A DNA stretch of 63,797 nucleotides, counting the filler, from Neolecta irregularis DAH-3 (taxonomy: Eukaryota): the NCBI GenBank assembly GCA_001929475.1. It is 9 parts of 9 records of this genome, joined end to end, with 100 filler letters (N's around TTAATTAATTAA, not from the genome) between each part and the next. Parts side by side here need not be neighbours in the genome. Positions count along the whole stretch, not along the records: positions 37,352 to 54,062 come from LXFE01002939.1; 8 more parts are not named here. One strand, 5' to 3'. The translations under genes were made by a program, and so were the position numbers. Below, one piece after another: positions 47,901 through 50,989 of this stretch (position 1 is the stretch's first letter; the number at the start of each line of letters is the position of its first letter). A model generated the notes under the pieces. That model did no database searches, had not been told where the DNA came from, and saw only the letters and a list, made by a program, of their open reading frames with translations.

Positions 47901-50900
47901 ACATTGACGGCGACGAACAGATGCAAAATTACCTTGACGAAGAGTGGGCACAGTTAGTTGAAGATCGGAAGAAACTTCGCCATATCTTTCCTGATGGTGA
48001 TAATCGTCGGGCTCTGCCTGTGAATATTCAACGAGTAATACAAAACGCCCAACAGATTTTTCATATCGATCGTAGGAAACCATCAAATCTTACACCCAAA
48101 GATATCATCGAGGGAGTAAGGCAGCTTGCTTTAAAATTGATCGTGTTTCGAGGAACTGATCAACTCACTAAAGAAGCCCAACAAGATGCCACATTGCTTT
48201 CTCAAATTCATATTCGATCACGTTTAGCCACGAAGCGAGTTTTGAAGGAATACCACTTCAACAAAATTGCCTTTGAATGGCTTCTCGGGGAAATCGAATC
48301 ACGGTTCACGAGTTCTGTTGCATATCCCGGGGAAATGTGCGGAACTCTTGCCGCTCAGTCGATTGGGGAACCAGCCACCCAGATGACTCTTAATACTTTC
48401 CATTATGCGGGTGTTTCCTCCAAGAATGTTACTCTTGGTGTACCCCGACTCAAGGAAATTCTCAATGTCGCAAAGGACATCAAAACACCCTCGTTGACGA
48501 TTTACTTGAACCCTGATATTAGTGGCGATATGGTTGCTGCAAAAGCAGTTCAGAGTCAAATTGAACATACGACGTTACGGACTGTTACTCAAGCTACTGA
48601 GATCCATTATGACCCTGATCCGCAAAATACGATTATTGAAGAGGATCAGGAATTCGTGGAAGCGTTCTTTGCTGTTCCTGATGAAGAAGTCGAGGCAAAT
48701 TTGCATCGACAGTCACCGTGGCTTCTCCGATTAATTCTCGATCGTGCCAAAATGCTTGATAAACATCTCAGTACAGAAGACGTCGCTGGTAAAATTGCCG
48801 GTAGTTTTCAGAATGATATGTTTACGATTTGGTCCGAAGATAATGCTGATCAACTTGTAATTCGATGTCGTGTTCTCCGTGACGACAAAGACGAAGAAGA
48901 TCAAGAAGAAGATTTATTTTTGAAACGAGTGGAGAATCATTTACTTGAGAATATCAATTTACGTGGAGTTCCCGGTGTCTCGAGGGTATTTCTCAATCAG
49001 GCCAAAGTTCGAAGATTAAACGAACTTGGTGAATTTCATGTTGATTATGAATGGACTTTGGAGACGGATGGTGTTAATTTGGCAGAAGTTATGGCTATTG
49101 ATGATGTTGATTTTCGTCGTGTACATTCGAATTCTTTCGTCGAGGTTTTACAAGTCCTTGGAATCGAAGCTACTCGGGCTGCCCTTCTCATCGAATTGCG
49201 GAAAGTCATTGAATTCGATGGTTCTTATGTAAACTATCGACATTTATCGCTTCTTTGCGATGTTATGACATCTCGGGGTCATTTGATGGCAATCACTCGG
49301 CATGGCATTAATCGAGCGGAAACTGGAGCCTTGATGAGAGCTTCGTTTGAAGAAACTGTAGAGATCCTTCTTGACGCTGCTGCCTTTGGTTCGAAAGACG
49401 ATTGTCGAGGAGTTTCGGAAAATATCATGCTTGGTCAACTTGCGCCGTTGGGTACCGGTGAATTTGATGTCTTATTAGATGAACAGCTTCTTAGTCAGGT
49501 TATTCTTGACCCAAGATATCAGGCAACTGCTGCTGTTGGAATTGGCGGAAAGACTTCACTCCATGATGGCGCTGCTACACCGTACGATGGTCGATCGCCT
49601 GTCTATCACGATCAACAATACATCGGATCTCCAGATGCAGGAGCAGCTTTTTCACCACTTGTACAATCCGGTGCTGATTCTCCACGAGGTTTTGGTGATT
49701 ATGGCGCGTTCGGAACGAGTCCTTATACAGGAGCCAGTCCGTACGGAGCAGGTTCGCAAAGTCCAGGATATTCTCCTAGAAGTCCATTTGGAACAAGCCC
49801 GACCAGTCCCGGTTATTCTCCTGCGAGCCCTGCATAGTATGCTCTCTTTACGTTTATGTTTTTAATTCCACAGTTCTCCTACATCGCCCTCGTTTGGTTA
49901 TAGTCCAACTTCTCCAGGCTACAGTCCTACCTCTCCGAATGCTTATTCTCCGTATATTTTCCTCTCATCTTGAACTTTACTGATCGTGCAGAGCATCCCC
50001 AGCTTACTCTCCGTATGACAAGATCAACCTTCAGTGTGCTGATTTTGCAGTACTAGTCCATCTTATTCCCCAACAAGTCCTTCCTACAGTCCAACGAGTC
50101 CGAGTTACTGTATTTTGCTCTCACTTTCGTTATTCTGATTTTTCCAGCGCCTACGTCGCCCTCATATTCCCCTACATCTCCATCTTACTCTCCTACATCC
50201 CCTTCATACTCTCCAACCAGGTGATTTCTTCATATCCAGAATTTCTTGCTTATGACAAGCCCGAGTTATTCTCCGACCAGCCCAACTTATTCTCCGTAAG
50301 GTGTCCCTTATCAATCCTTACTGATTAATATAGAACCAGTCCTCAATAGCATGTTCTCATTGATGTCATCATGCTAATGACACAGTTCTCCAACTTCTCC
50401 TCGGTACTCTCCAACTAGGTATCTCCCCAAGTTTTGATAATTCTGACATCTAGTCCTCAATACTGTATAATTATCATGTCCATTGTGAATCTAATAATCA
50501 GCACCAACTTCGCCTACTTATTCGCCCACTTCTCCCCAGTACTCTCCGACTAGGTTTGTTTCTAATCAAGTTTCGCGCTAAATTTATAGTCCAAGCTTTT
50601 GTATAAATTGATTATTGTTTGATATTGACAGTATAGCACCTACCTCTCCACAAATGAATAAAGGTAGTCCGGCAAGGTAAAACTTTCTTTTCTATTCAGT
50701 ATCAATTCTGACACGTCTAGTCCGAATTATTGTATAGAAATTGAGAAATCGTTTACAGGGAGCTAACTTTTATAGCGCCAACGAGCCCCCATTATAGTCC
50801 TACGTAAGCCACCCATTGACCTCTGTTAGCTAATATTCGCAGAAGCCCTATATAGTTTGCCCACTAAACGCGCACGCATGCTAACTGAAACAGTTCCCCC

Positions 50901-50989
50901 ACAAGTCCACAGTACAACTCATACTGTATGACAGCTTCCCCTACTCAAACTGACTTTTCCCAGCGCCTTCTAGTCCCAAGGGAGATTAA
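44904..50989 (+). CDS. RPB1: RNA polymerase II largest subunit with heptad CTD
   Basis: [58 protein letters not shown]; 6 introns in the 5' part, one ~3.8-kb exon (46040-49836), then 16 introns in the YSPTSPS region; stop TAA at 50987-50989. Confidence 0.98.

Follow-up and report, generated by a model that had tools for sequence, protein, structure and literature searches.

A micro-exon array encodes the carboxy-terminal domain of RPB1 in Neolecta irregularis

The CTD (carboxy-terminal domain) of RPB1, a subunit of RNA polymerase II, was analysed in the fungus Neolecta irregularis DAH-3 within a stretch of 63,797 nucleotides (nt), called the window below, that is composed of nine parts of assembly GCA_001929475.1 joined by filler; all positions count along it. 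Very probably, the array of short introns found there is the 3' end of the single N. irregularis RPB1 gene, in which the CTD is divided into 17 exon pieces of 11-78 nt by 16 ordinary U2-type introns of 35-44 nt, all of which are removed to give one messenger RNA (mRNA) with 25 normal heptads. On the same reading the array has no demonstrated regulatory role and is an extreme case of a bias present in several fungal lineages. The gene structure is extreme and otherwise ordinary; splicing is probably constitutive, and the array does not represent a new mechanism.

Gene layout and splicing of the CTD array

In a protein search, the large exon preceding the array (exon 7) matched the public RPB1 of N. 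irregularis DAH-3 (P0001) at 100% identity, followed by Pneumocystis (71%) and Schizosaccharomyces (69-70%). Its translation of 1,259 amino acids carries Pfam Rpb1 domains 1-7 in order with E values of 5e-102 to 3.5e-11, namely the end of domain 1 (PF04997), PF00623, PF04983, PF05000, PF04998, PF04992 and PF04990, while the remainder of domain 1 is encoded by the 5' exons of P0001. The borders of the six 5' introns are the only set that gives the first 400 amino acids of P0001, and the last of these introns is skipped by record 10 of the sequencing run X2 described below. The first intron has GC-AG borders with the donor GCACGT; its border comes from reproducing the public protein and is not among the X2 joints listed. 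With two GC-AG introns among 22, the gene has a high share of this class. Intron density changes sharply along the gene (Table 1), from 6 introns in the first 906 coding nt (6.6 per kilobase, kb) to 0 in the 3,797 nt of exon 7 and 16 in the last 538 coding nt (about 30 per kb). The CTD spans 1,153 nt, of which 615 nt are intron.

The open reading frame (ORF) at 46058..49837 appears to end at a TAG, which is formed by the last two bases of exon 7 and the first base (G) of CTD intron 1. Once the 16 intervals are excised, the frame counted from 46058 extends for 4,317 nt and contains one stop only, at its end, and the spliced tail consists of 25 [Y/F]SPxSP heptads. The original prediction, made from the sequence alone, had proposed that 16 introns of 35-44 nt restore the frame past 49837, that they follow an intron-free exon of about 3.8 kb, and that about 25 heptads result, ending in YSPSSPKGD and a stop. 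All of its coordinates hold, the internal exon sizes are exactly reproduced on splicing, the preceding exon is a continuous ORF, and 25 units are counted with the same end. Since reading introns from an expected repeat could be circular, a decoder was written to avoid this, a cyclic-heptad dynamic program that was given only the heptad consensus, GT/GC..AG as borders, a permitted intron size of 30-250 nt and a penalty for introns. Applied to 49600-51300, it returned exactly the same 16 introns; its validation was made on the Neolecta RPB1 locus alone. An earlier heuristic that counted heptad blocks per frame was dropped in favour of the dynamic program, as it undercounted (10 blocks at the Neolecta locus).

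Splicing of the array was then read from contigs of X2, compared over 44000-52000, a run whose library type is not on record and which is labelled 'DNA?'; X1 is a genomic run and may be the source of the window. The behaviour of X2, rather than its label, points to a complementary DNA (cDNA)-like library: its contigs skip short GT..AG segments in genes on the + strand and CT..AC segments in a gene on the - strand, in three neighbouring genes, and its exons match the window with 0-1 other letters. Record 11 of X2, a contig of 2,661 nt at depth 114.6, covers 47964 to 51238 and leaves out every one of the 16 CTD introns, with joints where the borders had been predicted. Six of them appear as single joints, one of which fits equally with the cut 2 nt further right, and the other 10 as five double joints, in which the letters between are those of the 15-, 11-, 11-, 11- and 12-nt exons. 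The predicted GC-AG intron at 50349-50385 is among the latter, its GC donor being fixed by the 15 letters. Transcripts that end or stay unspliced near 49837 had been named in advance as evidence contrary to the structure; the X2 contig is instead spliced through the whole array. Depths in bins equal 114.6 times the exon fraction (e.g., 67.8 in a bin that is 59% exon), and thus fit record 11 alone, with no unspliced X2 contig over the CTD. The only X2 contig there is the fully spliced form, though contigs drop rare variants, so that minor isoforms may escape. X1 contains the CTD introns at full depth, and the sole difference between X1 and the window in 44000-51600 is G for A at 50327 in CTD intron 6.

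Table 1. Features of the RPB1 gene, in window positions. Each CTD intron is supported by frame-restoring splicing, by the decoder and by X2.
Feature	Position	Strand	Length (nt)	Borders and heptad site	Evidence or remark
RPB1 coding region	44904..50989	+	5,241 (coding)		23 exons, 22 introns, 1,746 amino acids; join reproduces P0001 residues 1-1601, one terminal stop
5' block	44904..46039	+			six exons (90, 126, 84, 60, 234, 312 nt) and six introns
5' introns	44994-45033, 45160-45201, 45286-45323, 45384-45424, 45659-45691, 46004-46039	+	33-42	first GC-AG
Exon 7	46040..49836	+	3,797		no intron; catalytic core, linker, first heptads; continuous ORF; X2 records 10 and 11 without joints
CTD intron 1	49837..49873	+	37	GT-AG, Tyr1 phase 2	X2 joint 49836>49874
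Exon 8	49874..49951	+	78
CTD intron 2	49952..49991	+	40	GT-AG, Pro3 phase 2	X2 joint 49951>49992
Exon 9	49992..50012	+	21		one heptad
CTD intron 3	50013..50050	+	38	GT-AG, Pro3 phase 2	X2 joint 50012>50051; retained in public model
Exon 10	50051..50109	+	59
CTD intron 4	50110..50147	+	38	GT-AG, Ser2 phase 1	X2 joint 50109>50148
Exon 11	50148..50220	+	73
CTD intron 5	50221..50259	+	39	GT-AG (AAG acceptor, no YTRAY), Ser5 phase 2	X2 joint 50218>50258, cut +2 fits equally
Exon 12	50260..50295	+	36
CTD intron 6	50296..50333	+	38	GT-AG, Pro3 phase 2	X2 double joint 50295>50386, 15 letters between
Micro-exon 13	50334..50348	+	15		letters between joint sides in X2
CTD intron 7	50349..50385	+	37	GC-AG, Tyr1 phase 2	X2; public model uses GT donor 4 nt downstream
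Exon 14	50386..50418	+	33
CTD intron 8	50419..50453	+	35	GT-AG, Ser5 phase 2	X2 double joint 50418>50502
Micro-exon 15	50454..50464	+	11		letters between joint sides in X2
CTD intron 9	50465..50501	+	37	GT-AG, Ser2 phase 1	X2
Exon 16	50502..50553	+	52
CTD intron 10	50554..50589	+	36	GT-AG, Ser5 phase 2	X2 double joint 50553>50637
Micro-exon 17	50590..50600	+	11		letters between joint sides in X2
CTD intron 11	50601..50636	+	36	GT-AG, Ser2 phase 1	X2
Exon 18	50637..50676	+	40		irregular non-heptad stretch
CTD intron 12	50677..50720	+	44	GT-AG, Ser5 phase 2	X2 double joint 50676>50776
Micro-exon 19	50721..50731	+	11		letters between joint sides in X2
CTD intron 13	50732..50775	+	44	GT-AG, Ser2 phase 1	X2; public model reads in and stops
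Exon 20	50776..50803	+	28
CTD intron 14	50804..50842	+	39	GT-AG, Thr4 phase 2	X2 double joint 50803>50894
Micro-exon 21	50843..50854	+	12		letters between joint sides in X2
CTD intron 15	50855..50893	+	39	GT-AG, Tyr1 phase 2	X2
Exon 22	50894..50925	+	32
CTD intron 16	50926..50963	+	38	GT-AG, Ser2 phase 1	X2 joint 50925>50964
Last coding exon part	50964..50989	+	26		includes TAA stop
3' untranslated region	50990..51238	+			at least to 51238; X2 record 11 runs on to 51238

The splice signals are those of ordinary introns. Borders are GT-AG in 15 cases and GC-AG in one (intron 7), nine of the 16 introns start with GTAT, and 14 contain a YTRAY branch motif whose A lies 7-10 nt away from the 3' splice site, introns 5 and 10 having near-matches only. 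Their lengths compare with the 33-42 nt of the six 5' introns. A crude scan of the whole window for a donor, YTRAY and YAG within 30-70 nt, counted in 1,150-nt bins, placed the two CTD bins (11 and 8 intron-like motifs) at the top of 112 strand-bins, the next holding 7, 6 and 5, which excludes chance as the source of the array. The introns do not resemble one another, as had been proposed from the sequence: the best global score of any pair is 5, against a 95th percentile of 7 in shuffled sets, and Tandem Repeats Finder (score 30) detected only periodicities of 21 nt and 12 nt, inside three exons, and no repeat taking in the CTD introns. In Rfam, no match to 49000-51600 was obtained at E <= 1. 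By eye, there are hints of resemblance between intron interiors and heptad codons, which the pyrimidine-rich composition confounds.

The public protein differs from the one encoded by the fully spliced gene. One particular join of the genomic sequence gives P0001 (1,739 amino acids) without a single mismatch: 10 of the 16 true CTD introns are used (1, 2, 4, 5, 6 and 8-12), intron 3 is retained, intron 7 is cut at a GT, 4 nt downstream of the GC that is the true donor, and the reading runs into intron 13 to a stop. The shifted donor together with the 38 retained nt restores the frame. Compared with the corrected protein of 1,746 amino acids, residues 1-1601 agree, 75 are out of frame, 52 agree, 11 are intron-derived and the last 32 are absent.

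CTD introns in other fungi and comparable gene structures

For comparison, 80 environmental fungal RPB1 loci were taken from metagenome contigs with an alignment to the C-terminal part of RPB1 at 51-67% identity. The set includes near-duplicates (L001/L002; L007 and L010-L013) and loci cut within the CTD, e.g., L003, L017, L028 and L059. Raw decoder counts were rejected owing to run-on past the CTD into Ser/Pro-rich noise, with 16 introns in L070 (44-214 nt, 3 of which pass the filter below), 9 in L044 and 8 in L043. A strict filter was used instead, in which the 14 flanking residues must match at least 8 of 10 key heptad positions; it passes 13 of the 16 true Neolecta introns and drops 3. By this count, 53 of the 80 loci have no CTD intron, 6 have one, 5 have two, 9 have three and 7 have four, so that 27 have at least one and the maximum is 4, compared with 13 for Neolecta under the same filter. 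The strictly supported introns look genuine: their donors read GTAAGT or GTGAGT, their branch motifs resemble CTAAC, and their acceptors are YAG. The suggestion that CTD introns may exist in other fungi is thus borne out for introns as such and for micro-exons of 12 nt, while similar density was not found in these 80 loci. Among the 16 loci with three or four strict introns, 10 have 1,491-1,506 nt for the preceding 499-500 codons, leaving no room for an intron; an intron-rich CTD beside an intron-free core is therefore not peculiar to Neolecta. Peculiar to it are the three 11-nt exons and the number of introns, which exceeds the highest count among the loci by a factor of at least three to four.

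A quick 34-row tree, built from 23 of 120 proteins and 11 of the 80 loci (L048 being left out as too gappy), groups the Agaricomycete-like loci with Wolfiporia. In these loci the CTD is interrupted by 4-5 introns of about 50 nt, and a 12-nt micro-exon lies between a Ser5 and a Ser2 intron, as seen in L005, L014 and L016. The intron order Tyr1, Ser2, Ser5, Ser2, all in phase 1 and with the 12-nt micro-exon, is shared by L005, L008, L014, L016 and L024, which shows that CTD intron positions can be stable across related taxa. L001 and L002 fall in a Taphrinomycotina-like clade with seven rows in the tree, whose placement as sister of Neolecta is not supported. Decoding of their short degenerate CTD (L001 4950-5700) gave four introns of 33-35 nt and a fifth of 75 nt, and a sixth is recognised by eye near the stop; the CTD follows an uninterrupted ORF of 827 amino acids. 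The first CTD intron of L001 lies in a Tyr codon in phase 2, as does CTD intron 1 of Neolecta.

Introns also interrupt the CTD region of animal and plant RPB1 genes, such as mammalian POLR2A and plant NRPB1. The Neolecta array is of this known kind, spliceosomal introns in a repeat-coding region that are partly present in the public annotation, and is an extreme member of it. It shares with the interrupted CTDs of the environmental loci the position of introns inside heptad codons after an intron-poor core exon, the use of Ser2 phase 1, and micro-exons; it differs from them in having 16 introns in 25 heptads, three 11-nt exons, and sites at Tyr1, Pro3, Thr4 and Ser5 in phase 2. In vertebrate fibrillar collagen genes, a short repeat is likewise encoded by many very small exons, of 54 bp, classically explained by duplication of an exon together with its intron. 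Collagen exons are uniform multiples of the repeat with whole-codon borders, whereas the Neolecta CTD exons vary from 11 to 78 nt, mostly are not multiples of 21 or 3, and are separated by introns that all split codons. Schistosoma micro-exon genes contain runs of exons below about 36 nt, symmetric in length, whose alternative splicing varies the protein. Exons below this size occur in the Neolecta CTD too, but symmetric exons are not enriched in it (6 of 15), and one spliced form is seen in contigs. A single alternatively spliced micro-exon is described for Trichoderma Xlr2 in the accessible part of PMC11121469. Introner-like elements represent a further known system, in which many introns gained in one lineage share sequence; the 16 Neolecta introns share nothing beyond splice signals, and recently duplicated or introner-type introns were accordingly rejected.

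Origin and possible roles of the introns

All 16 introns split a codon and use 5 of the 21 nucleotide positions of the heptad unit: Tyr1 phase 2 (introns 1, 7 and 15), Ser2 phase 1 (4, 9, 11, 13 and 16), Pro3 phase 2 (2, 3 and 6), Thr4 phase 2 (14) and Ser5 phase 2 (5, 8, 10 and 12). Under uniform placement, the probability that 16 introns fall on five sites or fewer is about 5e-6. Furthermore, the order Ser5 intron, 11-nt exon, Ser2 intron forms a module that is found three consecutive times. Based on the recurring sites and the triple module, the most likely origin is an old duplication of heptad blocks with their introns, combined with introns being gained again and again at a small number of favoured sites; after both, the interiors of the introns must have diverged completely. 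From the data, duplication cannot be told apart from repeated gain: the triple module speaks for the former, and the lack of similarity between introns together with the use of Ser2 phase 1 in distant fungi fits favoured sites.

A series of steps can be proposed for how such an array could arise and be tolerated. Short fungal introns are recognised across the intron (intron definition), and the short length and strong internal signals of the CTD introns suit this mode, under which exon length would be irrelevant and exons of 11 nt would pose no recognition problem. Across the 25 repeats, the same handful of acceptable insertion sites may be available each time, within a disordered domain that would tolerate small junction errors, and heptad blocks would duplicate together with any intron they carry. 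More speculatively, cDNA-mediated intron loss might be disfavoured in the CTD, where recombination between repeats would change the register.

Several observations weigh against this account as a whole. X2 is not on record as RNA, with its 'DNA?' label, and no RNA-labelled run covers the stretch, the cDNA nature of X2 being deduced. Its contigs show one isoform, so minor ones may exist, and 5 further joints exist beyond those listed. Sharing a heptad site does not make introns more similar (mean score -2.95, compared with -3.62 for other pairs), which lends duplication no positive support. The nearest clade among the loci, that of L001, is not a supported sister of Neolecta, and the loci include no closer relative. 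Finally, the Ser5 introns of basidiomycete-like loci are in phase 1 and in TCN codons, compared with phase 2 and AGY codons in Neolecta, so that the module is probably not shared by descent.

An appreciable though minor probability attaches to the alternative that the Neolecta lineage recently acquired most or all of the 16 introns through independent gains, at favoured heptad sites and without duplication. It would account for the lack of similarity between introns and for the use of the Ser2 phase-1 site in distant basidiomycete-like loci, and it agrees with a genome survey, in the available part of which N. irregularis is intron-rich, with 4,202 introns counted over 1,211 ortholog alignments and independent acquisition for about 26% of these (PMC7940399). 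Independent gain does not readily explain the module repeated three times in a row, however; dissimilarity does not discriminate, as interiors of 30 nt would lose similarity fast, and the exon-side context is the canonical AG proto-splice site in only 4 of the 16 cases. Creation of introns by tandem duplication of an AGGT segment was also considered and rejected: AG/GT was seen by eye at 0 of 16 mature junctions, and the CTD introns match the non-repeat 5' introns in length instead of measuring 21 or 42 nt.

As to function, the original prediction had offered two ideas. The first, that the introns were selected to break up repetitive DNA and so guard the CTD from slippage and unequal recombination, is quite unlikely and is weakly contradicted by the repeats themselves. 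CTD-coding DNA is unstable in budding yeast, undergoing expansions and contractions, according to the accessible part of PMC4882425, and with the introns in place, as in the genomic sequence, the identity at a 21-nt period is lowered to 0.35, compared with 0.54 after splicing. The longest exact repeat, however, is 13 nt both spliced and genomic, and 12 intron-free CTD loci, picked from the 53 without a strict intron, have longest repeats of 12-62 nt, with 7 of the 12 at 15 nt or less. Codon variation alone thus does what the introns would do, and introns are mentioned 0 times in the same part of PMC4882425.

The second idea, that splicing tunes CTD length and the array is a device for isoforms made by exon skipping or intron retention, is very unlikely. 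Six internal exons are indeed multiples of 3, as had been predicted, the 21-nt exon is one heptad and the 11+52 pair three, and retention of late introns would leave shortened but still long CTDs. The significance given to these exons did not survive, since 6 of 15 is the chance expectation (binomial P = 0.38) and the heptad register is kept by that one exon and one pair only. Retention of any single intron gives a stop or a frameshift (16 of 16 cases), which makes splicing obligate for a full CTD. X2 has the fully spliced contig alone, a weak argument as contigs drop rare variants. There is likewise only a slim chance that partial retention or skipping gives graded CTD-length forms or throttles Rpb1 output, which is conceivable because each retained intron truncates the CTD and all are located within the final 1.15 kb ahead of the poly(A) site; if true, the splicing capacity of the cell would bear on the length or dose of the domain through which transcription is coupled to splicing.

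It is barely credible that the skipped segments are not introns, X2 being DNA of a strain or retrocopy without them and the gene a pseudogene broken at 49837, as the X2 label and the lack of an RNA-labelled run might suggest, given the GT/GC..AG ends on every skipped segment, the branch motif in 14 of 16, the skipping of similar segments in three neighbouring genes on both strands, the perfect 25-heptad CTD obtained on splicing, and the full-depth introns of the genomic run.

Neighbouring features and significance

Upstream of RPB1, a gene on the - strand (44048-44554) is covered by X2 record 9, which skips segments of 33-34 nt with CT..AC ends (44345-44378 and 44520-44553); introns of only 34 nt are at the lower end of known spliceosomal intron sizes. 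Downstream, in 51600-52000, two alternative X1 contigs over 51684-51837 differ at 8 positions and are accompanied by loose ends, the X1 depth is 850-1,200 compared with about 450 elsewhere, and X2 has a spliced joint 51737>51774; the segment looks like a repeated or heterozygous one within another expressed gene. Elsewhere in the window, an actin gene lies at about 15900-17300 on the + strand, with an ORF at 16030-16758 that encodes a typical actin N-terminal region and with several candidate short introns; after the CTD, this region is the next-densest in intron-like motifs.

Fruiting-body DNA and RNA of N. irregularis have been sequenced and 5,546 genes predicted (PMC5309816); the words intron, exon, RNA-seq and transcriptome are absent from the main text of that paper. 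A literature search turned up no publication that deals with where introns lie in CTD-coding DNA, nor any on this array. In the available part of a survey of fungal introns, Gonapodya is the densest genome named, with 4.5 introns per kb, and Taphrinomycotina average 1.08 per kb (PMC8476143), so the local density of about 30 per kb in the Neolecta CTD stands against the genome-wide fungal maximum of 4.5 named there. The array corrects the public model of a core enzyme, whose 75 out-of-frame CTD residues and 32 missing ones would mislead surveys of CTD evolution. It also provides a test case for the recognition of 11-nt exons flanked by introns of 35-44 nt, and for how introns come to spread through a repeat, be it by duplication or by recurrent gain at identical sites. 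In conclusion, the comparison suggests a broader and undescribed bias, in which intron-rich CTD repeats stand beside an intron-free core in several fungal lineages.

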